From: a virus
Virus genome (UHGV): UHGV-0324072
DNA: 43,215 nt
Strand: one strand, 5' to 3'
Shown here: piece by piece, positions 1 through 36,205 of the stretch
Numbering within the stretch: position 1 is the stretch's first letter
How the letters are laid out: each line of letters opens with the position of its first letter
The notes under the pieces: model-generated
Databases searched by the model: none
Told to the model about the DNA's origin: nothing
What the model saw: only the letters and a program-made list of their open reading frames with translations
Made by a program: the position numbers and the translations under genes

Positions 1-612
1 ACCGAGAGCGTAAAGCATAAGCTGCTTGTTTTCTTTCGCTTCGACGCGATGCCGTCCTGTTTTAAGGTCGCCGATAATGAGCATCGCGGAGTTACTTTCA
101 CCTGTAAAGCCTTCTATAACCGCCACTAAGTCGGCTGTCCCGAATGTCTCTAAATCATCCTCCTTACCTTCTTCACTCTCAGCAGGTACTTTGTAGCCCG
201 GATGCAATACCTCAGTAAGATTGACACGCATTTCCAGCTTGGCGTAAGTCGCTACATCGATAATCGCTTTGCAGTAGTCGGTGTACTTGCGAACCTGTTC
301 AATCATGTCAGCCGTAATCAGTACCGCGCCTTTCATAGGGCTGATTAACGCCTTAATCTGGCCTTTTCCTTCGTCCAGTACATAAGCGCCGACTTCACGT
401 TCTAATGGCAACGCAGTGCCTTTGATGTACTGGTTAAGGTGTATCTCGGCTATGGTGTGCATTGCCGTGCCTAATATCGCAGCTTTACCGGACGTGTCAG
501 GAATATCCTTTTCACAGGCCAGTGATGCGGCGCAGGTTAACCACTTTTTAGCACCTGACGGTGACAGTAAGGCGTGTACGTCGTTATTGCCGCCGCGTTC
601 TTTTAGAATCAT
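1..612 (-). CDS. DUF2800-family PD-(D/E)xK (Cas4/RecB-like) nuclease, N-terminal part; ORF runs off window start and continues in frame at 42547..43215
   Basis: ATG at 612 (RBS GGAGAG upstream); translation MILKERGGNNDVHALLSPSGAKKWLTCAASLACE...; no stop before position 1; family call from motif memory. Confidence 0.6.
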   Translation of the reverse strand, partial: MILKERGGNNDVHALLSPSGAKKWLTCAASLACEKDIPDTSGKAAILGTAMHTIAEIHLNQYIKGTALPLEREVGAYVLDEGKGQIKALISPMKGAVLITADMIEQVRKYTDYCKAIIDVATYAKLEMRVNLTEVLHPGYKVPAESEEGKEDDLETFGTADLVAVIEGFTGESNSAMLIIGDLKTGRHRVEAKENKQLMLYALG

Positions 613-956
613 CGTAAACTCTCCAAATACAAGTTTAATGCCTGTAGCTGTTCTTCTGTGGGGATGAAAGAATCATCACGATGTAAGTCGCTTAACTGTT
701 GCAGCATTCCTGCGAACTTACGTCTTGCGTCAACAGTGGCCATGTGATGCTTTTCGCTTTTGTATATTAATGTTTTCGGGTAATCCTCAAGTCTTCCAGA
801 CGATTTATTCACGCGGAGTGCTCGAGCTTCATGCGCAATGTGGATGTACTTTTTGCCGTTTTGTAGCACAGTAGCTACGCCGCTGTTCTTTCTGCGGTCA
901 CCGACGGTGTAAACCTTGTCACCACTACGCAGATTAAGCCACCATTTATCCGTCAT
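609..956 (-). CDS. hypothetical protein (115 aa)
   Basis: ORF track 609..971; ATG at 956 overlaps upstream stop (ATGA); stop overlaps start of nuclease gene. Confidence 0.5.
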   Translation of the reverse strand: MTDKWWLNLRSGDKVYTVGDRRKNSGVATVLQNGKKYIHIAHEARALRVNKSSGRLEDYPKTLIYKSEKHHMATVDARRKFAGMLQQLSDLHRDDSFIPTEEQLQALNLYLESLR

Positions 957-1225
957 ACCCGGTTCTCCCACTGGTCAATTAAATGTCGTGTCTTGTGGTC
1001 ACAATGCATCGCCCAGCTATACATCGACTCGAAGACATAAAAGTCACTTTTAACGAATGTCGTGCGCTTAATCTGCGACAGGTGACGGCCTATATCTTTC
1101 GGCTTCGGTACTTTGCCGAGGTAGGCCATCTCTTCCATCTGGTGCGCGCCGGACGGCGCACGCAACAGCCACAACGCCTCTGTGTTACCCCGTCGGTCAA
1201 TACCTCGGTAGAGTTGGTAAATCAT
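953..1225 (-). CDS. hypothetical protein (90 aa)
   Basis: ORF track; ATG at 1225 with GAGGG RBS; coupled to downstream gene. Confidence 0.5.
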   Translation of the reverse strand: MIYQLYRGIDRRGNTEALWLLRAPSGAHQMEEMAYLGKVPKPKDIGRHLSQIKRTTFVKSDFYVFESMYSWAMHCDHKTRHLIDQWENRV

Positions 1226-1268
1226 ATTACGACCCTCTGTTAAAGCGGCCCGGAGGCCGCCAGATAAA

Positions 1269-1769
1269 TTATTCTTCTTCGAAATACTTGTTCTTAATCG
1301 CCGTCAGGCGTTTCAGGTATTCAGCCAGGTCTTCGTCTTTAATCGCGGCAATCTTCATTTTCTTACCGGTGAACTCCTCCAGCAGTTCATCGGAATCGTC
1401 GCACGCAGCATCGCTAGGACCCTCGTTAATTGCATCGTCGATAGTCTGAATCTGGTCACGAAGAGACTGGTAATCGACCTCTTCTTTCTCTTCTTCTGGT
1501 TCTGGAGTCGGCTCCTCTACTTTAGCTTTACGCGGCTTGCGTTTCGGCTTCTCTTCTTCTGCTGGTTTAGCGTCAACGATGTCTTCACCTTCAACAGGGA
1601 TTTCTTTTGTTGCTTCTTTTTCGCACTCAGCTACCGCTTCTTTGGTATACACTACCGTCTCTACTTCTAACGGCGCTGCAACTTGTGCTGACTGTTTCGC
1701 ACTGTTCGCAGCAATCAGTTCATGTGCAACTACGAAACGTTCCAGTAATTTTAAGAATTGTTCTAACAT
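1269..1769 (-). CDS. acidic hypothetical protein (166 aa), first gene behind promoter at 1801..1829
   Basis: ORF track; ATG at 1769 with strong RBS (rc GAGAGGAGAGAAACAA); Glu/Asp-rich. Confidence 0.55.
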   Translation of the reverse strand: MLEQFLKLLERFVVAHELIAANSAKQSAQVAAPLEVETVVYTKEAVAECEKEATKEIPVEGEDIVDAKPAEEEKPKRKPRKAKVEEPTPEPEEEKEEVDYQSLRDQIQTIDDAINEGPSDAACDDSDELLEEFTGKKMKIAAIKDEDLAEYLKRLTAIKNKYFEEE

Positions 1770-1800
1770 TTGTTTCTCTCCTCTCGTTTGGTATGGGCTA

Positions 1801-1829
1801 ACTATAATAGCGAACTATTCACATGTCAA
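1801..1829 (-). promoter_or_regulatory. sigma70-like promoter (minus strand): -35 TTGACA, 17-bp spacer with ATAGTTCGCTAT palindrome, -10 TATAGT
   Basis: rc of 1801..1829 reads TTGACA-N17-TATAGT; same architecture at 38774..38802 and 42333..42361. Confidence 0.55.
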
Positions 1830-1893
1830 TGGGCTTTTCTAAAATAATTAATATGGTACTATTCACATATCAACTGACTAAGGAGTAATTGAC

Positions 1894-2109
1894 ATGCAAC
1901 CATCTGAACTAGGCATCCGTGTAGAACAACGCCGCAAAGAACTCGGCATCTCCCAGCGCCGTTTGGCGGCCCTGACCGGCGTTTCCCAGGGCGCGATTAA
2001 CCAACTGGCACTTGGAGTAACTCAGGACGTCCGCCCGGCAACGCTGTTCAAACTGGCGGAAGTTCTGGAAGTAGACGCCAAGTGGCTGGCGTTAGGTGAA
2101 GGGGCTTAA
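1894..2109 (+). CDS. XRE/Cro-type helix-turn-helix transcriptional regulator (71 aa)
   Basis: ORF track; ELGISQRRLAALTGVSQGAINQL HTH-like segment; RBS AAGGAG 9 nt upstream. Confidence 0.6.
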   Translation: MQPSELGIRVEQRRKELGISQRRLAALTGVSQGAINQLALGVTQDVRPATLFKLAEVLEVDAKWLALGEGA

Positions 2110-2126: not shown

Positions 2127-4361
2127 CTATTCCAAATCCTCCTCTGTCACCACCAGCATCTCATTTGGTTCGTATAGTGTCTTCGGCCTTAATCTATCCC
2201 CTATTCTTTCGGGTATACGATATGTTCTCGGTACTACTTCGCCGTTAGCATCGCAACCAAGCATTAGTTCTCCATCTTTCAACATTTTATCAAGATGGGT
2301 GTTAGTCACAGAGAAGTCACCGGAACGAGCCACTATCTGCTGCTGAGTAAAACCGCGACCTGTGTCATCTGACTGTTGCAGGTCTTCCAGTGCCGAAAGT
2401 ATTGACTCCTTCCTTACTTCATCCCTGCCGCGTTTAACTTCTTCCTTTACTTTTTGCTTACCTTCTTTCGTCAACCCTTCTTCCCGCTCTTTCTCCTCGT
2501 CAGTTTTGAACGGCTCGAAACCCCACGGCATCAACACAAGCGCCTTGTGTGGTTCAGGAAGGTCCAGGTTTACGATTGTGCCGTATTCTTCTGTGCCCCC
2601 CAGGAACTCAACCGCACGGTACTCTTTCGGCGGCGGAGCTTCGCGGAACTGCACAGACTCCAGCACCATGCCAACCGTTTTCTGTTGAGGACCGTGCTTA
2701 AATTTCGAGTGGTATACGTTTATTTGACGGTCGGTTGCACGTTCGATTGTCAGTTCCACGTCAACACCCGCATACAGCGCCCCACTGCCGCGTGCTTTCT
2801 TTCCGCCCTTCTGCGTATGGTGGACAACGCCTACTGCGGCTTTAGTTGCATCGCGTACTTCTTTCAGAATGGCGATAACTTTACCCATGCCGATTGCTGT
2901 TGATGAACTGTTCTCGTCGAACTTATCAATCGTCAGTGCCAGGGTCTGGTTAAGGGTGTCGAACGCAACCATGCCAATTGGCTCGTCGCCAGCAGTTTCG
3001 CGCATTAACTTAATCAGGCTTTTAAGTTTGCCGACTTCGCCCATATCGATGACGTGTACATAATCTTTACCTTCCCCGCCATATTTAGCCGCTAGTGCAT
3101 CAATACGGGTGCGTGTAGCTGCGCCACCCTCACCATCAATATAGAAATGGTGGCAACGCTGGGTATCCGCCCCCGCAAACCTGTACCCGGCGGCGCTGAG
3201 GTACATCATCCCCAGCGTATAGAACGATTTGTACGTGCCAGATTCCCCGACGATATCCCAGATACAATCCGACGGCATGTACCCCTCAACGACGAAATCA
3301 GCCTTTACCGGCTCCGGTAACTCGTCCCCCTCTGAGTCCTCCTCTGAGTCCTCGTCGTCTTCCAGGTCGTCGAGGCTGCAAGTTACTGGGTCCTCGTTCT
3401 CTGTGCGGTGTAGTTCTTCAATCTCTTCTTCCGGTAAATCAGGCAGAGCCGCACGAATGCTGTTAATGCTGATAGGTTGCTTGTCTACGTTAAGCTCGTC
3501 TGGCAGGCCGCACATACGCAGGGCCAAATGCTGTCGGCGGTTAAGCTCGGTGCAAGCGCCGTTGTTTGTATGCTGGCAGACAAAGCGCACTTCTTTACCG
3601 TCGAGCATTATGCTGGTGGAGCCCTTGCCTGTATGCAGATGTTCGTTAGGGCATGGCACTTCGTACCCGCGCCCGGAAGATAAAGCGTCAAGGCCAAGCT
3701 CGGCTTCGCAGAAGTGTGCTATATCCGCGTTAAGCCCATGCTCATCAGCGGCAAGTGTTTTAGCCTCACGCTTACGCAACCCCATCTCTTCGGCTTTCTT
3801 GATGTACCGCTCGGCACGGATAACACGCCCTTCTGTAACCGTTATCTTCGACTCTTTGTGCGGCAGGTAGATAAGGCGGTTGCCATCTTCCGTGCAGTGG
3901 TCGCGCAACGCTTCGTCTATTTCTAACTCTGCACAAATAGCACGTTGCACCATCCACGCGTCGTTAGAGTTAAACGGCGTGCGAGCTGGAACCAGAACGC
4001 GGAAAGCGTAATCTCCGTTTTTACACACATGCTGATGCGATGCCGTTGTATGCAGAATATTGAAGAACGGTGCGTTCTTGAATTTGCGGGTAAGGTCGCG
4101 GTACTGAGTACGGTTGAGATGGTCAAAATCGAACTTAACCACACTGTCTTCCAGAATAGCGTTCTTACGGCGACCGCCAACAGGCGCAATAGCTTTCTGT
4201 TTAATCTTGGCCGCGTCGTACTCTTCCTTAGTCCATGACGGGTCCACGGATAAACGCTTCGATGTATCGCAGACATACTCCACAAACTGCTCGAGCGGCA
4301 TCTCACGCGCTACAGGGTTTTTATCGAATGTGTTACGCAGCGTTGCAAAAACAATATTCAT
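2127..4361 (-). CDS. DNA primase/helicase fusion (N-terminal primase-polymerase-like region, C-terminal RecA-fold replicative helicase)
   Basis: 744-aa ORF; Walker A-like GESGTYKSF, RecA/DnaB-like helicase segment; Cys/His-rich zinc-binding-like central region; C-terminus VVTEEDLE. Confidence 0.7.
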   Translation of the reverse strand: MNIVFATLRNTFDKNPVAREMPLEQFVEYVCDTSKRLSVDPSWTKEEYDAAKIKQKAIAPVGGRRKNAILEDSVVKFDFDHLNRTQYRDLTRKFKNAPFFNILHTTASHQHVCKNGDYAFRVLVPARTPFNSNDAWMVQRAICAELEIDEALRDHCTEDGNRLIYLPHKESKITVTEGRVIRAERYIKKAEEMGLRKREAKTLAADEHGLNADIAHFCEAELGLDALSSGRGYEVPCPNEHLHTGKGSTSIMLDGKEVRFVCQHTNNGACTELNRRQHLALRMCGLPDELNVDKQPISINSIRAALPDLPEEEIEELHRTENEDPVTCSLDDLEDDEDSEEDSEGDELPEPVKADFVVEGYMPSDCIWDIVGESGTYKSFYTLGMMYLSAAGYRFAGADTQRCHHFYIDGEGGAATRTRIDALAAKYGGEGKDYVHVIDMGEVGKLKSLIKLMRETAGDEPIGMVAFDTLNQTLALTIDKFDENSSSTAIGMGKVIAILKEVRDATKAAVGVVHHTQKGGKKARGSGALYAGVDVELTIERATDRQINVYHSKFKHGPQQKTVGMVLESVQFREAPPPKEYRAVEFLGGTEEYGTIVNLDLPEPHKALVLMPWGFEPFKTDEEKEREEGLTKEGKQKVKEEVKRGRDEVRKESILSALEDLQQSDDTGRGFTQQQIVARSGDFSVTNTHLDKMLKDGELMLGCDANGEVVPRTYRIPERIGDRLRPKTLYEPNEMLVVTEEDLE
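2130..2147. repeat. 18-bp exact repeat TTCCAAATCCTCCTCTGT (second copy 42550..42567), encoding C-terminal TEEDLE of two replication proteins
   Basis: identical nucleotide strings at both gene 3' ends. Confidence 0.8.
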
Positions 4362-4486: not shown

Positions 4487-4526
4487 TGTATAATCCTTAT
4501 GCTTACTTTGATGATTTGTACTTTAG

Positions 4527-4558
4527 CCCCGACGTTCTGGCGTTGGGGTTTCTTTTTA
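4527..4558 (+). terminator. plus-strand hairpin plus T-run inside a minus-strand gene block
   Basis: CCCCGACG-ttctgg-CGTTGGGG then TTTCTTTTT; T-run only on plus strand. Confidence 0.3.
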
Positions 4559-4846
4559 CCGTTTAGCCAACCCTTCCAGCAAATTTTTATACTCTTCAAA
4601 ATATTCCTCGACCAAATCATCGCCGAAATAGAAGTCGATATACTCGAGATTATCTCTTACGTTAAGCGATGCCGACATGGTGCTTAGTTGGCGTAAGCTA
4701 ATTAGCTTCATTTCTGTTTCTACGCAGAAAGGCCGGTAGGTATCAAGATGGCAAGAGATATTGAAGCATAAAGCGAACTCTCCGGCCACGGAGTGAACCA
4801 TATACACTTCGTTTTCTGCTTTATTGTGGAAAATTACGCCTTTCAT
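4556..4846 (-). CDS. hypothetical protein (96 aa), coupled to AlpA-like regulator gene
   Basis: ORF track; ATG 4846 overlaps stop of upstream gene (ATGA). Confidence 0.5.
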   Translation of the reverse strand: MKGVIFHNKAENEVYMVHSVAGEFALCFNISCHLDTYRPFCVETEMKLISLRQLSTMSASLNVRDNLEYIDFYFGDDLVEEYFEEYKNLLEGLAKR

Positions 4847-5025
4847 TTCACGTTCTCCTTAATCCATGCTTCGACTTTATTACGGTCAAATGTTCCCGGT
4901 AAACGGCGGCCCATAACCTTAATACAGCAGTCAGGGAATTTGCCGCTGCGCAACCAGTTATTAATGGTCTGACGTGTCACCCCGATACGCTCGGCTACCT
5001 CATTCTGTGTCATGTAATGTTGCAT
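4843..5025 (-). CDS. AlpA/excisionase-family HTH DNA-binding protein (60 aa)
   Basis: ATG at 5025 (RBS AGGGGA); MTQNEVAERIGVTRQTINNWLRSGKFP typical AlpA-type HTH; track start is an upstream alternative codon. Confidence 0.55.
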   Translation of the reverse strand: MQHYMTQNEVAERIGVTRQTINNWLRSGKFPDCCIKVMGRRLPGTFDRNKVEAWIKENVK

Positions 5026-5056
5026 TTTTATATCCCCTGTTTGTTTAGTGAAACCG

Positions 5057-5085
5057 AGTATAGGATAGCGGGAATGTAAAAGCAA
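5057..5085 (-). promoter_or_regulatory. candidate sigma70 promoter for AlpA-like operon (TTGCTT-N17-TATACT, minus strand)
   Basis: rc of 5057..5085. Confidence 0.4.
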
Positions 5086-5122
5086 CCAATCCCTGCAATA
5101 TTTAATCTTTACAAAAAAGTTA

Positions 5123-5152
5123 TTGAAAGTTCTTGACACATGTTTGTATAAT
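5123..5152 (+). promoter_or_regulatory. candidate sigma70 promoter (TTGAAA-N18-TATAAT) facing a 350-bp ORF-free region
   Basis: TTGAAA 5123..5128, TATAAT 5147..5152. Confidence 0.45.
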
Positions 5153-5159
5153 GGTTTTG

Positions 5160-5380
5160 GGACTTGTATATATTACGGAGTTGACGAACCCTCCCCGAGG
5201 GATTCGTCAACCCCTCCCAGACAGCTGAGATGCTTGCCTTGTGGTTTAAGGATAAGTGTATCTAAATCTCATTTAAAGAAGTAACCCGCTGAAATATCTA
5301 CTGTTTCTTAATGTGCCGTAGATTCGCAACCGTAAAAATGTAACGATTATTGGGCAGGCCCTAAGCCTGCCCTTTAGTTA
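5160..5380 (+). ncRNA. candidate small non-coding RNA between promoter 5123..5152 and terminator 5353..5380
   Basis: no ORF over 11 codons on plus strand; 13-bp stem-loop 5181..5210 near the 5' end; GGGCAGGC-ctaa-GCCTGCCC plus TTTAGTT terminator at 3' end. Confidence 0.25.
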
Positions 5381-5444
5381 CCAAGTAATAAGAATAAAGG
5401 CACAACAGTTTCGAAAGAATCACAACGGCAACGTAACTATTCTC

Positions 5445-5473
5445 TTGCACACCACAACATAATAGGATACTAT
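5445..5473 (+). promoter_or_regulatory. early promoter, class TTGCAC-N17-TACTATTCA
   Basis: TTGCAC 5445..5450, TACTAT 5468..5473. Confidence 0.5.
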
Positions 5474-5507
5474 TCACTTATCGAAACGAGACAGAGGAGT
5501 GAGGGTT

Positions 5508-5699
5508 ATGTTTAAGAAGGGTCAGTTGGTTAAAACTAAACGCGGATGGCAATATGTATTAGTGTTGCAGGACGAGAGCGAGTATGACGAGGATAATCTG
5601 GTTGACGTATGGGGTCTGGTAAGAAAGAAAACTGGGTTCGCCTCCCGCGATAATTTAGAACTCATCGGCAACAATTTTAAATTCAAAGGGGCGAAGTGA
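5508..5699 (+). CDS. hypothetical protein (63 aa)
   Basis: ATG 5508 behind GAGGAGTGAGGG RBS; track start at 5499 is GTG. Confidence 0.45.
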   Translation: MFKKGQLVKTKRGWQYVLVLQDESEYDEDNLVDVWGLVRKKTGFASRDNLELIGNNFKFKGAK

Positions 5700-5935
5700 T
5701 GCAAATCATAATTACGGATAACACAGTTGCCTACGAAAAAGGTGGCGACAATACTCTGGAAAGAATAGGCGTAAATATAGGTGACGTTTTTGATGTGCTT
5801 GGTACTGTATCAGGCGGTTGGTGGATTAAGGTTGGACACAACAAAGTGCCAGTAACTAAGGCCGAAGCGGAAATATACACAACGGCATCGAATCATGATG
5901 CTCGTGCCAACGACTCTGAGGGAGGTTGCCGTTAA
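5699..5935 (+). CDS. hypothetical protein (78 aa)
   Basis: ATG 5699 overlaps upstream stop (TGATG). Confidence 0.45.
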   Translation: MQIIITDNTVAYEKGGDNTLERIGVNIGDVFDVLGTVSGGWWIKVGHNKVPVTKAEAEIYTTASNHDARANDSEGGCR

Positions 5936-6126
5936 TGAGAATTCGTATAACTGATGTTGATTATGTGGACCCGCGCGATGGTGACGATTTGCCGCTTAGT
6001 TACTGGGGCGTTGCAGTAGGAGATGAGTTTGAGGTTACACACGCCGGTTCCGCTATGTTCATTATTGAACGTGACGCGGGGTATGTAGTTGTGTATGCAA
6101 GTGAATGCGAAGTTCTGGAGGACTAA
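5935..6126 (+). CDS. hypothetical protein (63 aa)
   Basis: ATG 5935 overlaps upstream stop (TAATG); RBS GAGGGAGG. Confidence 0.45.
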   Translation: MRIRITDVDYVDPRDGDDLPLSYWGVAVGDEFEVTHAGSAMFIIERDAGYVVVYASECEVLED

Positions 6127-26728: not shown

Positions 26729-27090
26729 AAGCGCTGTATGAATTTGCGCAATGGTGCTTTGTCGACCGCCACAAACGTAAGCAATTCGACGACATCGCGG
26801 CGGGCCACCAGGCGGCTTTGATTGCAATGGGCGTGATTAAAGAACCGCAGATGAAAGAAGCGACGGGGCCGGAATGCCCCGTTTCTCTTATCGACGTGTT
26901 CGAGAAATACCGTGCCATTAAATTCCTACAGCGCGAAACAGATGATACTATCGTTATAATCCCGCGCGATGCGCTCAAATGGCAAGATTTGGTAGCGTTT
27001 CGTTATGTCGCCGGTTACGGCATAAGTTTGTTCGAAGCCGAGGTTATCATGGGCTTAGACGGAATATTTGAGGGCAGAGAAGATGGCTGA
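26710..27090 (+). CDS. -1 frame extension of chaperone (candidate gpGT-like frameshift product)
   Basis: -1 frame opens at 26710 and runs to 27090; GGAAAAG slip-like heptamer (26719..26725) directly before the G stop codon; T-frame stop overlaps tape measure start. Confidence 0.4.
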   Translation, partial: ETLGKVKALYEFAQWCFVDRHKRKQFDDIAAGHQAALIAMGVIKEPQMKEATGPECPVSLIDVFEKYRAIKFLQRETDDTIVIIPRDALKWQDLVAFRYVAGYGISLFEAEVIMGLDGIFEGREDG

Positions 27091-29395
27091 TACGGCTTCC
27101 CTAATTGCCAGAGTAAAAACAGAAGGCGCTGATGTAGCCGCTAAACAGCTTGACGCTATGGCGGCATCCGCAGACCGTGCGGACACATCCGTAAACAAAC
27201 TAACGCCGGATGTTAATAAAGTAAACTCCGCTACGTCTAAAGCGGCTTCTGACGGTTTCGCTAAATTCCGTAACGCCGCCGGGCAGGTAGGCTTCCAGGT
27301 GCAGGACATGGTCGTCCAGTTGCAGTCCGGCACGTCTGCATTCGTAGCAATCGGGCAACAAGGCTCTCAGCTTGCGGGTGCTTTCGGCCCTGGTGGCGCG
27401 GTGCTTGGGGCCGTAATTGCTCTTGCGTCAGCAATCGGTGGTGTCCTGTATAAATCGTTAACCGAAGCAGAAGGCAGTTCAAAAGACCTCGAAGCCGCGC
27501 AGAAACAGTTAAAAGATACTTTCCAGCAAACGGCATCTGGCTCTCTCGAGCTGACAGACGGCCTTATCCAGCTTACCCAAATCAGCAGAGAGGCGGCAGA
27601 GACTCAGCTTGCTCTGGCTAAGGCCAACGCGGACCTTATCGCGCAGCAAACAGCTAAAGCCGTTCGTGAGGACGCAGAATCGTGGGAAACATGGAAAGCA
27701 TCCACGGCATCGGCGATTAGCCAGTACGATGCACTGACCTCTAAGGGTGCTGATGTAGGTGACACGTTAGAAAAACTCGGTGGTACTTACGAGGGTAACA
27801 TCGTAGGCGTCAACATGCTGGCGCAGAATATCGCGGAGCTTAGCAGTAAGTTCGGAGTTAACCGTGACCAGGCGCTGGAGATGATAGCGGCGCAGAGTGC
27901 GTTTAACAAAGAGCCAACCGCCGAGAATGCCCGTCGCATCGCCGATGTGTTTACCGACTGGCTCGGTAACACAAAACAGTTGAACCCGGAACTTATCCGC
28001 CTGACGGACAACGCCAACAAGAACGCCACGGCACTGGAGAACGCGGAGAAGTCAGCAAACGCGGCGGCAGAGGCCCAAAAGAATCTTGGTCGCAACGTCA
28101 ACTCAACCACGCAGAGATTCCAGGAACAGAACGAAGCTATCGTCAAAAACCAGCAAATCGCCATCTTAAGCGACCGTGAGCGTATCCGGGCGCAAGCTGA
28201 ACTTGATAAACAGGCGTTCGCTAAACGTGAAGCCGTCACCAAAGAACAGATAGCCGCGTATAATGCGGCCCGCGACGCGGAAGCGCAGCAAGACATCGCC
28301 CGCATTGACAAGACCGAGAAAGAGAAGGCCGACCGCGAGGCTAAATCGAACGAGGAACGTCTGGCGGCACAAGCCAAACGCGAAGAAACAGCGGCACAAC
28401 GTCAGAAAAAAGCGGCGGAAGATTTCCTGGCTACTGTCGACCGCACAACCGGAGACGAAATTTCACGTATCACAGCGGCAGAAGAACAGAAACTGGCGAA
28501 ACTTGAAGAGTTCAACCGCGCCGGAACGATAAGCCAGCAGCAGTACGAAAACGCCAAAACTCAAATTATGCTCACCGCCGAGCAGGCCAGACAGGAAGAA
28601 CTGGATAAGAAAAGAAAAGAGCAGCAGGAAAAGCAGCAGAAAGGCGACGACTTCATGGCCCAGATTATAGGTCAGAACGCCGCTGAGCTTGAGCTTCTCG
28701 ACATCCAGGAACAGCAGAAACTGTCGGTAGCAGATAAGTACCGCGAGCAGGGTTTGATTAGTGAGAAGCAGTACCAGGCGGCGCTTAACGCCATCAATGA
28801 GCAGTATGCTACGAAGCGTGCCGACGCAACGGCAACGGCCTTCGGTAACATGGCTTCAAACATCGGTTCGGCTTTGGGCGAGGCTTCTGGCGCGTATAAG
28901 GCATTCGCTATCGTACAGGCCACTATCGCCACGTACACCGCGGCTATCGAGGCGTACAAGTCCACAGCGGCTATCCCTGTAGTTGGTCCGTTCCTGGCTC
29001 CTGTAGCTGCCGCCGCTGCCGTTGGGGCGGGTATGGCGCAGATTTCCGCTATCAGGTCCGCACGTGAACAGGGCGGACAGTTATCAGCCGGGCAGGCTTC
29101 CACCATCGCTGAACGTGGTAAACCAGAAGTTATCATGCCCGCTGGTGCGTCACGTGTACGCACCGCACAGCAGATGAAAGAGATTATGGGACAAAACGGG
29201 TCTTCTTCCGGCCCATCTAATGTTACCATTGTAAATAATACATCGAGTCAGATTGGCAACGTATCCACCGAGCAGGATGATGAAGGCCGTCTGCGTATCA
29301 TCATAGAAGAGCAAGTTGCTGCATCTTTGCAGAACAGCAACAGTAAGATTAGCAAGGCCCGCAAGGCCACAAGAAACGCGCCGGGGTTTAAATAA
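27083..29395 (+). CDS. tail tape measure protein
   Basis: 770 aa, Ala/Gln/Glu-rich helical; ATG 27083; longest tail-module ORF. Confidence 0.8.
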   Translation: MADTASLIARVKTEGADVAAKQLDAMAASADRADTSVNKLTPDVNKVNSATSKAASDGFAKFRNAAGQVGFQVQDMVVQLQSGTSAFVAIGQQGSQLAGAFGPGGAVLGAVIALASAIGGVLYKSLTEAEGSSKDLEAAQKQLKDTFQQTASGSLELTDGLIQLTQISREAAETQLALAKANADLIAQQTAKAVREDAESWETWKASTASAISQYDALTSKGADVGDTLEKLGGTYEGNIVGVNMLAQNIAELSSKFGVNRDQALEMIAAQSAFNKEPTAENARRIADVFTDWLGNTKQLNPELIRLTDNANKNATALENAEKSANAAAEAQKNLGRNVNSTTQRFQEQNEAIVKNQQIAILSDRERIRAQAELDKQAFAKREAVTKEQIAAYNAARDAEAQQDIARIDKTEKEKADREAKSNEERLAAQAKREETAAQRQKKAAEDFLATVDRTTGDEISRITAAEEQKLAKLEEFNRAGTISQQQYENAKTQIMLTAEQARQEELDKKRKEQQEKQQKGDDFMAQIIGQNAAELELLDIQEQQKLSVADKYREQGLISEKQYQAALNAINEQYATKRADATATAFGNMASNIGSALGEASGAYKAFAIVQATIATYTAAIEAYKSTAAIPVVGPFLAPVAAAAAVGAGMAQISAIRSAREQGGQLSAGQASTIAERGKPEVIMPAGASRVRTAQQMKEIMGQNGSSSGPSNVTIVNNTSSQIGNVSTEQDDEGRLRIIIEEQVAASLQNSNSKISKARKATRNAPGFK

Positions 29396-31314: not shown

Positions 31315-31676
31315 ATATTAACGACTACACGGGAATACCTTACGACTTTCGCAAACGCAATTGCTGGCACCACGTTCGCATTGTCCGCGCGGATGCGGGG
31401 TTAGAAACTCCGGCGTTCGACGTTACAAGCCCGACTGCAATTAACGAAGCGTTTGACGAAGGCCACCGTGACACGAAGGGGCTTACTAAAATAGATATGC
31501 CTGAAAACTTCTGTGCGGTGCTTATGGGGTATCGCCGCGGTGGTCGTATCGTGTGGCACGCTGGAGTTTACTTCGACGGGATGGTCAGCCATTGCGAGCT
31601 TGCCTCACGTCAGGTACGGCTCGACAGGCTGGCGGACCTCAGAGACACGTACACGGAGATTGAATTTTGGCGATAA
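31311..31676 (+). CDS. NlpC/P60-family tail assembly protein (lambda gpK-like)
   Basis: Cys...His...His pattern NCWHHVRIV, HAGVYFDGMVSHCE. Confidence 0.55.
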   Translation: MNINDYTGIPYDFRKRNCWHHVRIVRADAGLETPAFDVTSPTAINEAFDEGHRDTKGLTKIDMPENFCAVLMGYRRGGRIVWHAGVYFDGMVSHCELASRQVRLDRLADLRDTYTEIEFWR

Positions 31677-34234
31677 TCCTGCACTACACGCGAAACGCTG
31701 ATGGCGCTTTCAACCGTACAAAACACGTCGGGATGCCGATGGAGTTTGTCGTTAACCGTATCCCGGACGGCGTTCCGGTACGCGTCTATCTTGGCGAGAT
31801 TGGTGATGATACTGATGTTACAGACGACTTCGACGCGCTCAAAGACGAGGACGCCGTGTACCACATTATTGAGGGCGCTGGCGGCGGCATTGGCGACGCC
31901 ATCGGGAGTGTATTCAGTTTCATCCTTAAGCCAATCGCCAAATTGTTCGGGCTAAACACAGCGGCTAACGCTAATTATTCCGCTACCAACAATCAGGCTA
32001 CGTCGCCTAACAACAGTCTCACCGACCGCTCAAACAAGCCACGACCTTATGAGCGTTCCTATGATATCTGCGGGACAGTGCAGACCATCCCCAATGACCT
32101 GATGCAGACATATAAGGTGTTTAATGCCGCGGGTGCGCTTATTGAATATGCGTACTATGACGCCGGTCGAGGGTATCTGCATATTGAGGAAGACGGTGTA
32201 ACTGAGGCAGATACCCGAATCAGCGAGATAACTGGCTCGTCGGTGACGGTGTATTCTCCTTACACTTCGCCGAATAACACCAGCACACCACAATTGCATA
32301 TCGGCGACCCTATAGACCAGAAATTGTACGTTACATTTAAAAACGCCGATGTCGATGGCGCTGTTCTTCCCGCCCCTAATGATATCGCTATAGACGTGCA
32401 GGACTACACTGTCCAGCGGCAGGGAACAACCGGCGTTGTAGTAGGCGATGACGCTGGTTTCGATGAGTTTTTGGCGGTCGGGGACCTGGCATACTTCGAT
32501 AACGTATATGCAGATACAACCCCAGGGTCTTTGGGTAATGAGGTTAACCTGGACGGGAGGTACACGGTTCTTTCGGTTAGTGAAACCACCCTTATTGTGG
32601 ACGTCAGTACAAATCAATCAGTATGGAACCAGCTAGGGGCGTCTGTGTGGTTTATAGGTGAAGAGGGTAACCATCTTATAGGCCCGGCGGACACTTACGC
32701 GGCTTCTCTCTCTGAATGGGCGTACATCACCCGCGGTACTGTCGACCGTGTTGTAGCCAATGTCGCCGCCAGCAACGGCATGTATAAATACAACGGCGAC
32801 TATAACCGCGCTTCAGTGACAGTCGAACTGCAATACCAGATGGTTGATGAGTTGAAACGGCCCGTAGGTGATATATTCACCGTACAAGGAACTTTAACAG
32901 GCAGGAACACGGATTACACTGGGATAACTCTTTACGGAAGTTTACCAACTGCTTCCAGATTCCGCGCCCGTATGCGTCGTGTTTCTGACACCGATAAAGA
33001 TTTTGAGGGTACTGTTAGCGACGAGGTTACTTTCACTAACCTGTACGGACAGTCTCTGGACACAACACCGCACTACGGCAACCGCACTACGGTGCACTGT
33101 GCCCGTAAACAAACCCCACGTGCAGCCGAGGTGTCAGAACCGGAACTGCGCATGATTGCTACCGAGATGTGCTACAAATACTTAGGTAACGGCGTATTCG
33201 ATACGGTAATGACACCGAACACTCAGGCCGTGCAGTCGCTAATCAGGCTGGCGCGTGACCCTGTGGTGGGTAATCTGGAACTGACAACGGCAAATATGGA
33301 CAAGTTACTTGCCGTGCAGGAAGAAATTGAGTCGTATTTTGACAGTGAATTAGCCGGGCAGTTCTGCTACACATTCGACGACTACGACACAACCATGCAA
33401 GACATCGTTCAGACCATCGCGGAAGCCGTGTTTTGTACGGCATACCGTAAAGGTGCTGATATTATGCTGCGATTCGACCGTCCTGTTGCGGGGCCTGAGA
33501 TGGTTTTCACCCACCGCAGCAAAACGACCGGTACGGAGAAATGGACGCGCACGTTCAACGATTCGACAACCTACGATAGCCTGTCGTTCTCGTACATTGA
33601 CCCGGATACAAACGTACAGGAGACGATTTATATCCCGGAAGAACTCGGCGCGAACACCGAGGAGTACGAATCGAAGGGTGTACGTAACTATCAGCAAGCG
33701 TACTGGCTGGCGTGGCGTCGCTACCAGCGCAATGCGTTAAGTAAAGTTGTCGTAGAGTTCGAAGCTACCGAAGAAGGCGCTCTAGCTACTCCCGGCGGCG
33801 TAATCAGCGTGGTTAAAGGCTCCCGCATCGCGCCGCAGGATGGTTATGTTGTCGCCGTTAATGGGCTTACGCTTACGCTGTCGCAGCCGGTTACGTTTAC
33901 TCCTGGTGATGACCATTCCATCATTCTTAAGAAGCGCGACGGCTCTGTGCAGAGTATTTCTGTTATCAAAGGAAGCCACGACCGCGAAGTGATTATGCTC
34001 TCCGCGCCGGAGGAGGCAATCTACACGGGGAATAGTGCGCTAAAAACTGAGTTTTCATTCGGCAACGAAGCAAGGCATAATGCTCAGAAGATAGTTGTTT
34101 CTTCAATCGACCCCGGCGACGACCGCACGGTCAAGATTACGGGCTACAACTATGATGACGGATTCTATAAATACGACGGCGTCGCGCCATACGGCAGCGG
34201 TTTCTCCGACGGATTCAGCAATGGTTTTAATTAA
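31667..34234 (+). CDS. central tail tip / host specificity protein (lambda gpJ-like)
   Basis: 855 aa; position after gpK-like gene; start codon uncertain (TTG 31667, or ATG near 31733). Confidence 0.55.
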   Translation: MAIILHYTRNADGAFNRTKHVGMPMEFVVNRIPDGVPVRVYLGEIGDDTDVTDDFDALKDEDAVYHIIEGAGGGIGDAIGSVFSFILKPIAKLFGLNTAANANYSATNNQATSPNNSLTDRSNKPRPYERSYDICGTVQTIPNDLMQTYKVFNAAGALIEYAYYDAGRGYLHIEEDGVTEADTRISEITGSSVTVYSPYTSPNNTSTPQLHIGDPIDQKLYVTFKNADVDGAVLPAPNDIAIDVQDYTVQRQGTTGVVVGDDAGFDEFLAVGDLAYFDNVYADTTPGSLGNEVNLDGRYTVLSVSETTLIVDVSTNQSVWNQLGASVWFIGEEGNHLIGPADTYAASLSEWAYITRGTVDRVVANVAASNGMYKYNGDYNRASVTVELQYQMVDELKRPVGDIFTVQGTLTGRNTDYTGITLYGSLPTASRFRARMRRVSDTDKDFEGTVSDEVTFTNLYGQSLDTTPHYGNRTTVHCARKQTPRAAEVSEPELRMIATEMCYKYLGNGVFDTVMTPNTQAVQSLIRLARDPVVGNLELTTANMDKLLAVQEEIESYFDSELAGQFCYTFDDYDTTMQDIVQTIAEAVFCTAYRKGADIMLRFDRPVAGPEMVFTHRSKTTGTEKWTRTFNDSTTYDSLSFSYIDPDTNVQETIYIPEELGANTEEYESKGVRNYQQAYWLAWRRYQRNALSKVVVEFEATEEGALATPGGVISVVKGSRIAPQDGYVVAVNGLTLTLSQPVTFTPGDDHSIILKKRDGSVQSISVIKGSHDREVIMLSAPEEAIYTGNSALKTEFSFGNEARHNAQKIVVSSIDPGDDRTVKITGYNYDDGFYKYDGVAPYGSGFSDGFSNGFN

Positions 34235-34246
34235 AGAGGACTCTAT

Positions 34247-36178
34247 ATGTCAAGCGGATGCGGTGACGTTTTAAGCCTGGCGGATTTACAAACCGCCAAG
34301 AAACACCAAATTTTTGAAGCCGAGGTTATCACCGGTAAAGCTGGCGGTGTAGCTACGGGTGCTGATATCGATTACGCGACAAATCAGGTTACAGGGCAGA
34401 CTCAGAAGACGCTCCAGGCCGTGTTGCGTGACGCCGGGTTCAGACCTGCGCCATTCACATTCGAAACAGGTGGGACTTTGGGCGTTAACGACGCTGACCT
34501 GGCGGTGTTGTGGCCAGGGCCATCAGGCGACGGCAACTATTATGCATGGAAAGGCGCCCTGCCAAAAACCATCCCGGCATCTTCAACCCCGGCGTCTACG
34601 GGCGGAGTAGGCCAGACCGCATGGGTTGCCGTTAGTGAAGCTGCATTGCGCCGTGATTTGGCCCTAAGCACTGGCGCAGGGCTAGTCGGTACGTCTTCGG
34701 GTCGCACAGTGCAAGGCGAGGTTGACCATTTCAAAATAGGGTATATGACACCCGATGATTTCGGCGCGGTGGGTGATGGTGTTACCGACGACACCGCGCC
34801 TTTGCAACAGGCTATTGACTATTGCTCAAGCAACGGTATCGCGTTAAGAATCCCCGCAAAATCTTATGTTTGGAATGGCGGTATTATAACTTCACCCGTA
34901 ACAATAATCGGTGACAGACGTCCTGATTACAATCTTAGCTCCAATTCTATGTCTAACGGGTCTGTTATAATTGGCAATTTAAGATTTTCCGCAAGCCAGG
35001 TGATTATTAAGTCACTTGGTGTGCGTAGGCCTACAGGCTCCCCCGGAGATTGTCTGGTGTTATCGACCGATAACTATGCTGGTGGGTCTTGTATTGTTCA
35101 AGATGTAGTTGCCGCGGGCCTTTCCGGTTCGGACACGTACCACAGCGTTCTTGTTGAAGGCTACGATTCCGCGCATGTATCTCAAATAACTGGCGGTTAT
35201 AATCTTTTTGGCCTCGCGATTAAGTCAAGAAACGTTGTTGCCAGAGGCGTAATAACCGTAAGCTGTGATACTGGCGTTATCATTAAATCTGATAGTGAGT
35301 TCAGCACGGCAAAAAATGTGGTGCTGGACGGGCACATTAATGTCGGTAATGGTGTTTCTAGTCAAGGTGTTTGGATTCACAGCACAACCGCACAACTTGA
35401 GCGTATTACCTGCGCAAACTTACAAAGCATCGATTCCGCTATACATATGCGGATTAAGTCCGAAAACGTAGCTAATGACGTGCAAATTGTTGGGGCAAAT
35501 TATTCAGGATCTACTTATGCGGATGTGCTCGTCGAAGGCACTTCGGCTGGCACGTTGTACAATGTTAGTTTAGATAGTATAACCGCAGTAAATAGCCAGA
35601 AATTTATGGCTGCAGGTTTCTGTGAACAACTGATGGTAACAGGATTCTATGGGTCCCTGAAACCTGGCGCTCCCGCCGATACTGCGTTTGAGGTTAGCGC
35701 CGCCGTAGGGCTTTTTAGCGGGTCAAATATCCAACTAGTCCGTCAATACCGCAGTGACCTAATGACAATGAATCTCGGTAACAGTTATCTTAATAATAGA
35801 TTATCATCTGTTAAGGCGAAAGTAATAGGAAACGGCAAACCTAGGCCGGGGTATAAAGAACAGAATCTTAGCGGCGCTGCGGCTACAATGATTGTTGGCG
35901 ACAGTTTGGGGCCCTCTGGTGTTGTGTCTGTCACCGCGATATCCGCCGGCATGTCATTCAGCAGTATTGCTATTAATGACGACTATGGTCAGCCGGTTAA
36001 GCCAGGTTTTCTTCTAATAATCCGAAACGCATCCGCTATCTCGTTCGTTATGAACCATAATCCAGGGTCTGGTGGAATCGCAAATAACGGGGCGGTTGGT
36101 AAGACCATTGCGGGCGGAGACACTATAATGTACGTTTTTGACGGGGCGAATTGGCGTCAGACTCCATCAATAACATAA
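34247..36178 (+). CDS. tailspike protein with pectate-lyase-type right-handed beta-helix
   Basis: MTPDDFGAVGDGVTDDTAPLQQAIDY beta-helix entry motif; 643 aa; RBS AAGAGGA. Confidence 0.7.
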   Translation: MSSGCGDVLSLADLQTAKKHQIFEAEVITGKAGGVATGADIDYATNQVTGQTQKTLQAVLRDAGFRPAPFTFETGGTLGVNDADLAVLWPGPSGDGNYYAWKGALPKTIPASSTPASTGGVGQTAWVAVSEAALRRDLALSTGAGLVGTSSGRTVQGEVDHFKIGYMTPDDFGAVGDGVTDDTAPLQQAIDYCSSNGIALRIPAKSYVWNGGIITSPVTIIGDRRPDYNLSSNSMSNGSVIIGNLRFSASQVIIKSLGVRRPTGSPGDCLVLSTDNYAGGSCIVQDVVAAGLSGSDTYHSVLVEGYDSAHVSQITGGYNLFGLAIKSRNVVARGVITVSCDTGVIIKSDSEFSTAKNVVLDGHINVGNGVSSQGVWIHSTTAQLERITCANLQSIDSAIHMRIKSENVANDVQIVGANYSGSTYADVLVEGTSAGTLYNVSLDSITAVNSQKFMAAGFCEQLMVTGFYGSLKPGAPADTAFEVSAAVGLFSGSNIQLVRQYRSDLMTMNLGNSYLNNRLSSVKAKVIGNGKPRPGYKEQNLSGAAATMIVGDSLGPSGVVSVTAISAGMSFSSIAINDDYGQPVKPGFLLIIRNASAISFVMNHNPGSGGIANNGAVGKTIAGGDTIMYVFDGANWRQTPSIT

Positions 36179-36182
36179 AACT

Positions 36183-36205
36183 AAGGCCCCGTTTGGGGCC
36201 TTTTC
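36183..36205. terminator. bidirectional terminator AAGGCCCC-gttt-GGGGCCTT between tailspike and replication module
   Basis: perfect 8-bp stem flanked by T-rich tracts. Confidence 0.65.

Follow-up and report, generated by a model that had tools for sequence, protein, structure and literature searches.

The tailspike locus and its product

The window (the whole 43,215-nt stretch of viral DNA analyzed, UHGV-0324072) carries at positions 34247 to 36178 the tailspike gene of an Escherichia coli phage of the genus Kagunavirus (Guernseyvirinae). The open reading frame (ORF) shared 99.2% nucleotide identity with the Bas70 gene annotated "tail spike protein," and its product matched three Pfam families, Tail_spike_N, Pect-lyase_RHGA_epim, and Phage_depo_C, all above curated cutoffs. 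By ORF order, the gene lies between a J-like tail tip gene upstream and a convergent helicase block downstream (Table 1). The Pfam matches of the J-like gene (Phage-tail_3 and FNIII-A_GpJ) were weak, its counterpart in Bas70 is annotated "tail protein," and both its GC content (0.515) and its GC3 (0.568) are typical of the backbone. An identical gene order around the tailspike was found in Bas70, Bas74, NTEC3, P AB-2017, phiEc4, Ro145c2, and XY2, and a similar, not identical, arrangement in Henuyfy11N. Within the tailspike ORF, the other frames and the minus strand held only short ORFs of 61 to 84 amino acids (aa), and seven weak promoter-like matches were present, little in excess of the 3.2 ± 1.8 expected from shuffled sequence.

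Table 1. Coordinates of the tailspike gene, its modules, and neighboring features in the window
Feature	Position	Strand	Basis or description
J-like central tail tip/tail protein gene	31667..34234	+	855-aa ORF, directly upstream of tailspike
Tailspike ORF	34247..36178	+	643 aa; ORF listing
Module 1: N-terminal anchor, genus-wide, aa 1–65	34247..34440	+	Partial DNA matches in Kagunavirus
Module 2: Tail_spike_N-containing subdomain, aa 66–135	34441..34652	+	94–100% nt identity, Kagunavirus subset only
Invariant 29-nt linker core, end of R-DLALSTGAG	34653..34681	+	Proposed 5′ recombination site
45-nt linker tract with its own allele, aa 146–160, LVGTSSGRTVQGEVD	34682..34726	+	Three-way joint alignment
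Module 3: exchanged receptor-binding/enzymatic module, aa 161–642	34727..36172	+	nt identity to Bas77
Predicted beta-helix, aa ~170–470	34754..35656	+	Pfam PF12708, AF2 model, Foldseek
Maximum-likelihood GC changepoint	34801 (ORF nt 555)		Log-likelihood ratio 9.0–9.3
Stretch with D296, E304 (LVEGY), and D349 (IIKSD)	35132..35293	+	Conserved carboxylates, candidate catalytic
Predicted C-terminal beta-sandwich, aa ~536–640	35852..36166	+	Pfam Phage_depo_C and AF2 strands
Terminator hairpin, AAGGCCCC-GTTT-GGGGCCTT	36183..36202		Proposed 3′ recombination site; separates the convergent tailspike and helicase blocks

PF12708 (Pect-lyase_RHGA_epim; IPR011050) matched aa 170 to 358 (E value, 3.7e−9; 37.1 bits against a cutoff of 27), and the AF2 model placed regular strand rungs from approximately aa 199 to 465, consistent with a parallel beta-helix, with pLDDT values of 83 to 97 over approximately aa 171 to 420 and of 72 to 75 on to approximately aa 450. 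Phage_depo_C (PF25692) matched aa 587 to 637 (29 bits; cutoff, 25) within a C-terminal beta-sandwich whose strands were modeled with a pLDDT of ∼85. The AF2 monomer model was poor at aa 1 to 52, 131 to 163, and 491 to 533. Using Foldseek, the best matches were CBA120 TSP3, TSP1, phi29 gp12, and the tailspikes of HK620 and Sf6, all but the last with a probability of 1.0; the whole-chain TM-scores were low (0.2 to 0.33) because the query was a multidomain monomer model in which the domains are oriented differently. These matches support the fold class rather than any specific enzyme family. CBA120 TSP3, HK620, Sf6, and P22 likewise combine an N-terminal domain with a right-handed beta-helix.

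Sequence matches in the PDB, to CBA120 TSP1 and others, were confined to N-terminal aa 57 to 212; residues 92 to 210 of CBA120 TSP1 (PDB 4oj5) aligned with tailspike aa 59 to 191 (phmmer E value, 3.9e−17). No solved relative of the beta-helix was found in this PDB sequence search, and consequently there was no active site to transfer. In crystallized beta-helix tailspikes, catalytic carboxylates are located on neighboring rungs. The alignment columns of D296, E304, and D349 were at least 90% conserved across 12 homologues of the receptor-binding domain down to 31% identity, and these three carboxylates are candidate catalytic residues. The predicted fold suggests glycosidase activity, and the protein probably forms a trimer; AlphaFold-Multimer trimers have been shown for representative BASEL tailspikes (PMC11990801). 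The text of that paper contains none of the terms "halo," "depolymerase," or "hydrolase," and no enzymatic assay is reported there for Bas70 to Bas73.

Modules and joints defined by homology

The ORF very probably encodes the only receptor-binding tailspike of a Kagunavirus siphophage, a mosaic in which at least three modules are joined. Approximately 100 Kagunavirus records matched the gene only over ORF nt 1 to 185/194, with 88 to 93% identity. The codon usage of this first module is Kagunavirus-like, and the module presumably anchors the spike at the tail tip beside the J-like protein. Matches over ORF nt 1 to 440/446 were found in only a subset of the genus (Bas74 to Bas76, NTEC3, 590B, and KMB35). 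PF18668 (Tail_spike_N; TSP1/Gp66 N-terminal domain) aligned with aa 97 to 130 (34535 to 34636; 51.5 bits against a cutoff of 25), and aa 66 to ∼145 represent a Tail_spike_N-type domain with a linker, common to some Kagunaviruses only. The Module 2 region in Bas77 is homologous yet diverged (55 to 75% nucleotide identity).

The Skatevirus-like phages Bas77 to Bas80 matched ORF nt 373 to 1926 at 97%. In the sliding comparison with Bas77, identity was 95 to 100% from ORF nt 481 on, and from approximately this point to the stop codon the gene was 97 to 98% identical to the tailspikes of Bas77 to Bas80. These phages are otherwise unrelated to the one in the window; neither the gene set nor the gene order of the Bas77 backbone is that of the window, and the GC content of Bas77 is 46.8% versus 50.9% here. 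Such identity on unrelated backbones points to a recent exchange of Module 3 between Kagunavirus and Skatevirus-like phages. Most of 1,588 protein homologues have only the first 20 to 38% of the protein in common, and for homologues sharing only the N terminus, Pfam assigned the unrelated C termini to beta-helices, SGNH esterases, sialidases, and endosialidases. Judged by homology, the tailspike is a mosaic of a genus-conserved attachment end and an exchanged beta-helix module. An earlier note on this DNA had proposed that a receptor-binding or depolymerase beta-helix was exchanged onto a conserved attachment domain, and domain-wise homology, which was not uniform to any single tailspike family, bore this out. 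That note had also envisaged two parts joined at about 34850; the mosaic itself stands, but there are at least three modules, and the joint lies near 34653 to 34726.

Segment identities around the joints were compared in 12 loci. The linker core was identical at 29 of 29 positions in the window, Bas70, Bas74, NTEC3, and Skatevirus-like Bas77, with 27/29 in XY2, 26/29 in the Kayfunavirus Bas105, and 25/29 in the Nonanavirus Bas82. In the 45-nt tract that follows, Bas74 and Bas77 carry one and the same sequence, from which the window departs at 16 positions. BLASTN analysis of GenBank phages showed that the junction region is common at the DNA level to 20 phage records from Kagunavirus, Skatevirus-like, and Kayfunavirus phages; the linker hotspot is thus documented in only ∼20 GenBank coliphages. 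Exact-match scans of IMG/VR recovered neither the 45-nt linker allele of the window, nor the 72-nt linker allele of Bas74/Bas77, nor a 27-nt core. At the other end, the hairpin was terminator-like by scan, and its stems were invariant in 7/7 aligned Kagunaviruses and in Skatevirus-like Bas77, whose homology to the window stops after it. The terminator was matched at 30/34 positions in Nonanavirus Bas82.

The likeliest route of exchange would be homologous recombination between two short sequences carried by both lineages, in which the linker core and the terminator hairpin after the stop codon would serve as homology arms; the pattern of conservation at the two sites is what suggests recombination there. 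Pas et al. (2023; PMC10408124) reported that receptor-binding domains in Kagunavirus and other lytic genera are bordered by conserved DNA motifs that are candidate hotspots of recombination, with published motifs of 44, 95, and 20 nt, and the linker core and terminator fit this pattern as described there. The terminator motif is given in that study for Gamaleya-, Kutter-, and Justusliebigviruses and for single Kayfuna- and Nouzillyviruses, and not for Kagunavirus, whereas the terminator here is common to Kagunavirus, Skatevirus-like, and Nonanavirus phages and was likened to the published motif by its description rather than by sequence logos.

The composition step and its possible causes

The GC content in 300-nt windows was 0.56 to 0.60 between 34300 and 34800 and 0.44 to 0.47 between 34800 and 35900. 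The discontinuity that the earlier note had placed near 34850 was therefore present in a sliding-window analysis, with the maximum-likelihood changepoint ∼50 nt away from that position. When the codons of the ORF were shuffled, the observed changepoint statistic was reached in 0.3% of 2,000 trials (p = 0.003). When the ORF was split at nt 555, the GC content was 0.566 and GC3 0.535 on the upstream side; downstream, they were 0.460 and 0.419, respectively. The step is modest and not exceptional; an equally strong changepoint occurred in 5.8% of all 1,932-nt windows of the genome, and lower-GC stretches were found elsewhere (e.g., 4500 to 6000, at 0.416). The first 600 nt were not genome-typical, as had been supposed, but GC-richer than the genome (0.557 versus 0.509; standard deviation, 0.035), ranking among the GC-richest 7% of 600-nt windows because the coding sequence there is rich in Ala, Gly, Pro, and Thr.

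Asn (1.6 to 7.0%), Ile (2.7 to 8.3%), and Ser (5.9 to 12.4%) were all more frequent in the C-terminal than in the N-terminal part, and Ala was rarer (13.0 to 8.5%). Amino acid composition alone, at genome codon usage, lowers the expected GC content from 0.583 to 0.515 and accounts for about two thirds of the fall; synonymous codon choice makes up about one third. These shifts, together with a changepoint at the start of the beta-helix (aa ∼170 to 185) rather than at the recombination joint, could be read to mean that the step holds no evolutionary signal and merely reflects the amino acid make-up of a beta-helix versus an Ala/Gly-rich N-terminal domain. This is very unlikely, and the reading is partly refuted by GC3, which is nearly independent of protein sequence. 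C-terminal GC3 was 0.15 below the value expected from its amino acids with genome codon usage, the largest deficit among window ORFs of at least 100 aa, versus a deviation of only −0.03 in the N-terminal part; the codon usage shift that the earlier note had reported by eye is thus confirmed. Moreover, the exchange of Module 3 was shown independently by homology.

The step could instead be a fingerprint of the donor, left by a recent move from a Skatevirus-like phage of ∼46 to 47% GC into a Kagunavirus of ∼51% GC and not yet adjusted. The GC content of the receptor-binding domain (0.459 to 0.463) is near that of the Bas77 genome (0.4675), and its per-codon log-likelihood of −0.037 favors Bas77 codon usage (anchor, +0.040), a value inside the Bas77 range but beyond that spanned by Bas70 backbone genes (−0.03 to +0.129); the 97 to 98% nucleotide identity also implies a recent event. 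However, the two codon null distributions were separated partly since the table used to score each gene set had been trained on that very set, and ORF nt 373 to 555, although in common with Bas77, are still GC-rich. The GC3 of the receptor-binding domain (0.42) is also below that of the Bas77 backbone (0.487) and of the Bas77 J-like gene (0.466). Module 3 had a GC content of 0.463 and a GC3 of 0.424, and the same ranges (GC, 0.44 to 0.48; GC3, 0.39 to 0.47) were obtained for seven other Kagunavirus tailspikes with several types of receptor-binding domain (Bas74/NTEC3/XY2 type, K1 endosialidase, phiEc4, Ro145c2, and Henuyfy11N). Because these seven controls are equally low in GC, composition names no donor; with low GC the rule among Kagunavirus receptor-binding domains, it would not by itself prove exchange either. 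An unadjusted donor signature is accordingly considered unlikely, and composition as a decisive fingerprint was ruled out by the seven-tailspike control and the GC3 below the Bas77 backbone.

A third reading, given a little less than an even chance, is that receptor-binding cassettes owe their low GC3 to selection or to a pool that they all share, with the same step in every carrier that has a richer backbone. Cassettes may circulate among enterobacterial phage genera with a mean GC of ∼43 to 47%; alternatively, AT-rich or rarer codons may slow translation for folding of the beta-helix. Low GC and GC3 were seen in 8/8 Kagunavirus receptor-binding domains examined and in the homologous O16 receptor-binding domains of Bas105, Bas106, and Bas82 (GC, 0.43 to 0.45; GC3, 0.39 to 0.43), and the GC3 here is below both backbones compared (0.42, against 0.487 for the Skatevirus-like and 0.568 for the Kagunavirus backbone). 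The sample comprises only 11 tailspikes, some with related receptor-binding domains that are not independent, and a pool average is not separated from selection by the data.

Overall, the step in GC content and codon usage is very probably a by-product with two causes: Ala, Gly, and Pro abound in the N-terminal part and Ser, Asn, and Ile in the beta-helix, and a low-GC3 signature is carried by every Kagunavirus receptor-binding cassette examined. The step lies 75 to 150 nt downstream of the joint defined by homology and marks Module 3 only approximately, without revealing the donor. As the step is mostly an amino acid effect combined with a common cassette signature, composition alone is unfit for placing the joint or naming the donor.

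Probable O16 specificity, relatives, and significance

The receptor-binding domain (aa 161 to 643) shared 96 to 98% protein identity with Bas70 to Bas73, DUEC01, and Bas77 to Bas80 (range, 96.5 to 98.3%) and 31 to 34% with the tailspikes of Bas105, Bas106, Bas82, and APC_JM3.2. Bas70 to Bas73 depend fully on the restored E. coli O16 O-antigen, and infection by Bas74 to Bas82, Bas105, and Bas106 is likewise O16 dependent (PMC11990801). The near-identity to Bas70 to Bas73 (96 to 98% at the protein level) suggests specificity for the E. coli O16 O-antigen, which the earlier note had considered unreadable from sequence. Module 3 would bind and most likely cleave this O-antigen, allowing the phage to reach the outer membrane.

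The closest relatives, Bas70 to Bas73 (MarieHeimVoegtlin, LotteLoewe, NicoleGrasset, and GertrudWoker) and vB_Ec_DUEC01, shared 97.6 to 99.2% nucleotide identity across the full gene and carry the same three-module mosaic in the same position after the J-like gene, with point differences only. Among those from Bas70, a cluster falls in the last ∼250 nt, where the window is the same as Skatevirus-like Bas77 at 7 sites. Infection by Bas70 to Bas73 is not blocked by GtrABS glucosylation (PMC11990801). In Bas77 to Bas80, the gene is annotated "tail fiber protein"; the linker core and terminator stems do not differ from those in the window, but there is no relation over the N-terminal ∼80 aa, and aa 80 to 160 have diverged (55 to 75% nucleotide identity). 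The Bas74 to Bas76/NTEC3/590B group and K1 endosialidase phages (e.g., P AB-2017 and K1G-like phages) have the nt 1 to 194 anchor in common with the window (nt 1 to 440 for the Bas74 group). Kagunavirus tailspikes with other receptor-binding domains have the same terminator and flanking genes and a low-GC receptor-binding part. The C-terminal modules of the Bas74 to Bas76 group and of the K1 endosialidase phages are unrelated to the one described here, so their glycan specificities are other; phages of the Bas74 to Bas76 type are blocked when O16 bears its glucose side chain (PMC11990801).

Tailspike exchange of this kind and the same type of tailspike are already published (PMC11990801, PMC10408124), and current understanding is unchanged, with both the near-identical Bas70 to Bas73 and the general phenomenon in print. 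The locus provides a worked example in which a 1.45-kb cassette, apparently O16 specific, is shared at 97 to 98% identity across two unrelated groups of siphophages. It is conceivable, if rather doubtful, that the receptor-binding cassettes of enterobacterial lytic phages form a compositional class of their own, with a GC3 of ∼0.39 to 0.47 that is below every backbone compared. If true, this would indicate selection at synonymous sites (e.g., for slow cotranslational folding) or a common low-GC reservoir, and the linker core and terminator hairpin would be portable homology arms that define the cassette. Tailspike modularity sets phage host range and is the basis of retargeting by domain swapping; both joints were mapped here to tens of bases and could be cut points for the engineering of Kagunavirus chassis.

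Mosaic homology of the tailspike gene

All or nearly all of the genome of an E. coli siphophage (genus Kagunavirus, subfamily Guernseyvirinae) is contained in the 43,215-bp window. The tailspike ORF shared 99.2% nucleotide identity with the annotated "tail spike protein" of the BASEL coliphage MarieHeimVoegtlin_Bas70 and 97.6 to 97.9% with the tailspikes of Bas71-73 and vB_Ec_DUEC01, and the rest of the window matched Kagunavirus genomes at ∼90 to 92%. Its neighbors, the J-like gene and, downstream, a convergent block of a small ORF, a helicase and a methyltransferase, are those it has in these phages.

Megablast returned nested partial matches. ORF nt 1 to 185/194, and no more, were common to ∼100 Kagunavirus records (88 to 93% identity), nt 1 to 440/446 to Bas74-76, NTEC3, 590B and KMB35 (94 to 97%), and nt 373 to 1926 to Bas77-80 (97%), which are Skatevirus-like siphophages (46.8% GC) with gene content and order unlike those of the window. 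Sliding identity to Bas74 was 97 to 100% up to ∼nt 440 and background beyond, while identity to Bas77 was background to nt 240, 55 to 75% at nt 241 to 480 and 95 to 100% from nt 481 to the end. Nearly all of the 1,588 protein homologues in the database matched only the first 20 to 38% of the query, the C-termini of these N-terminus-only homologues being unrelated (PF12708 or PF13229 beta-helices, SGNH esterases, sialidases and endosialidases); the receptor-binding part was common to ∼18. Given the nested DNA matches and unrelated C-termini, homology to one tailspike family is not uniform along the gene, and the exchange of a receptor-binding module on a conserved attachment domain, as proposed in the earlier note, is supported by the megablast, sliding-identity and protein comparisons.

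Three homologues of the receptor-binding domain (P0011, P0012 and P0013; 54 to 72% identity) were found on long bacterial contigs, from Enterobacter asburiae (524 kb) and from E. coli (294 kb; the protein there is named "glycosyl hydrolase family 28-related"). At the N-terminus they differ from the tailspike and are longer, and they probably represent the same cassette carried by prophages.

Features of the tailspike locus and of the wider window (ORF nt counted from window position 34247)
Feature	Position	Strand	Detail
Tape-measure gene	27068-29395
J-like tail protein gene	31667-34234		Upstream of tailspike
Tailspike ORF	34247-36178	+	643 aa
29-nt stretch	34653-34681		Within coding sequence of R-DLALSTGAG
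Linker (45 nt)	34682-34726
Hairpin	36183-36202		AAGGCCCC-loop-GGGGCCTT
Tail_spike_N	aa 97-130		Pfam, 51.5 bits, above curated cut-off
Pect-lyase_RHGA_epim	aa 170-358		Pfam, 37.1 bits, above curated cut-off
Phage_depo_C	aa 587-637		Pfam, 29 bits, above curated cut-off
5′ segment	ORF nt 1-555		GC expected 0.583, observed 0.566; GC3 expected 0.568, observed 0.535
3′ segment	ORF nt 556-1929		GC expected 0.515, observed 0.460; GC3 expected 0.569, observed 0.419

Joints of the cassette

Three-way DNA alignment identified a 29-nt stretch with no differences among the window, Bas74 and Bas77, which was also found in NTEC3 (29/29), XY2 (27/29), the T7-like Kayfunavirus Bas105 (26/29) and the Nonanavirus Bas82 (25/29). 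Upstream of it the window follows Bas74, and from 34727 on it follows Bas77. In the intervening linker Bas74 and Bas77 are identical, and the window and Bas70 differ from both at 16 of 45 positions, giving three amino acid changes. The linker is a third allele lying exactly between the two joints, and implies that exchange took place there more than once. The junction region was common at the DNA level to 20 GenBank phage records (Kagunavirus, Skatevirus-like and Kayfunavirus).

On the 3′ side, the match to Bas77 continues past the stop codon into a hairpin that scores as a terminator, and stops after it. The hairpin stems were invariant in 7/7 aligned Kagunaviruses and in Bas77, and the element was matched at 30/34 positions 3′ of the tail fiber gene in Bas82 (58.5 kb; ∼3057 to 3090 of its locus, L015); at least three siphophage groups thus have this short element next to a receptor-binding gene. 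The exchanged cassette measures ∼1.45 kb and is delimited on either side by a short sequence that both lineages carry.

Fine mosaicism was also seen within the C-terminal beta-sandwich (window 35939 to 36175; ORF nt 1693 to 1929). Across nt 1693 to 1865 the window sided with Bas77 against Bas70 at seven informative sites, and at nt 1914 to 1929 it was unique at four; across nt 481 to 1524 it grouped with Bas70 at 13/16 sites.

Composition and the donor question

In a 300-nt profile, GC fell from 0.56-0.60 over 34300 to 34800 to 0.44-0.47 over 34800 to 35900. A binomial maximum-likelihood changepoint was placed at 34801 (ORF nt 555; log-likelihood ratio, ∼9), 75 to 150 nt inside the cassette at the start of the beta-helix proper. 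Codon-shuffled ORFs equaled the observed value in 0.3% of 2,000 trials; a step of equal strength occurred in 5.8% of all 1,932-nt windows of the genome, and stretches of lower GC were also found elsewhere. Using a codon table from the window's 38 other non-overlapping ORFs of ≥100 aa, amino acid composition explained about two thirds of the drop (Ala, 13.0 to 8.5%; Gly, 14.6 to 11.4%; Asn, 1.6 to 7.0%; Ile, 2.7 to 8.3%; Ser, 5.9 to 12.4%) and synonymous codon choice about one third. The compositional reading of the earlier note was therefore borne out in part: its drop toward AT at ∼34850 lies <50 nt from the changepoint, and its codon-usage shift is real, since the GC3 deficit of −0.15 exceeds that of any other ORF of ≥100 aa in the window, but the first ∼600 nt are not genome-like (GC, 0.557, among the highest 7% for windows of 600 nt; genome mean, 0.509).

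The lowest-GC stretch, 4500 to 6000 (0.416), has few long ORFs (of those ≥100 aa) and a sharp flip in GC skew (∼−0.06 to +0.30), and probably represents divergent early genes or a regulatory region. Unusually strong AT skew (+0.35 to +0.38) lies at 27500 to 29000, inside the tape-measure gene.

Composition could be taken as a donor fingerprint, with the receptor-binding domain drawn from a Bas77-like (Skatevirus-like) phage: its GC of 0.46 is close to that of the Bas77 genome (0.4675), and per-codon likelihood slightly favored Bas77 codon usage (−0.037, beyond the values seen for Bas70 backbone genes; anchor, +0.040). This origin is nevertheless unlikely to be what the composition records. The receptor-binding parts of seven other Kagunavirus tailspikes (L006 to L012: Bas74, NTEC3, P AB-2017, phiEc4, Ro145c2, Henuyfy11N and XY2), which span several receptor-binding domains (Bas74/NTEC3/XY2 type, K1 endosialidase, phiEc4, Ro145c2 and Henuyfy11N), always had GC of 0.44-0.48 and GC3 of 0.39-0.47, regardless of fold or target, with J-like genes at 0.49-0.52 and 0.52-0.61, respectively. 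The distant O16 domains of Bas105, Bas106 and Bas82 were similar in composition, and the GC3 of 0.42 lies below even the Bas77 backbone (0.487). From these controls and the Bas77 comparison, low GC3 is generic to such cassettes, and composition does not identify a donor. The generic low GC3 may stem from a low-GC pool that these phages share or from selection acting at synonymous sites.

Predicted fold, specificity and published modularity

PDB sequence matches were confined to aa 57 to 212 (e.g., CBA120 TSP1, 4oj5; E value, 4e−17). An AF2 model from a 17-sequence alignment (mean pLDDT, 73.6) predicted a regular beta-helix at ∼aa 170 to 470 (pLDDT 83-97 at ∼171 to 420 and 72-75 to ∼450) and a C-terminal beta-sandwich at aa 536 to 640 (∼85), and was poor for the anchor, the linker and aa 491 to 533. 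Foldseek matched it in the PDB to CBA120 TSP3 and TSP1, phi29 gp12, and the HK620 and Sf6 tailspikes (probability, 1.0). Together with the conserved carboxylates D296, E304 (in LVEGY) and D349 (in IIKSD), this fold suggests that the tailspike would cleave O-antigen enzymatically.

The receptor-binding domain shared 96 to 98% protein identity with those of Bas70-73 and Bas77-80, and 31 to 34% over its full length with the tailspikes of Bas105, Bas106, Bas82 and APC_JM3.2, the first three from O16-dependent phages (PMC11990801). Bas70-73 infect K-12 only with O16 O-antigen restored, prophage GtrABS glucosylation blocks Bas74-76 and not Bas70-73, and in these phages a single receptor-binding protein serves both recognition and irreversible adsorption (PMC11990801). 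From the near-identity to Bas70-73 and their O16 dependence, we infer that the window's phage would be specific for O16 O-antigen.

Pas et al. 2023 (PMC10408124) established that E. coli phage tailspike anchors track genus and receptor-binding domains track O-serogroup, in a set explicitly covering Kagunavirus and an O16 subtype, and proposed conserved DNA motifs flanking the receptor-binding domain, the 3′ one a terminator, as recombination hotspots. The very clade found here was described in the BASEL completion paper, its spread across Kagunavirus, Skatevirus-like, Kayfunavirus, Gamaleyavirus and Lederbergvirus phages being put down to horizontal exchange (PMC11990801). The base-level joints, the terminator common to Kagunavirus, Skatevirus-like and Nonanavirus phages, the division of the GC step into amino acid and codon components, and the control showing generic low GC3 add detail only to what is an ordinary, already published case of tailspike modularity.
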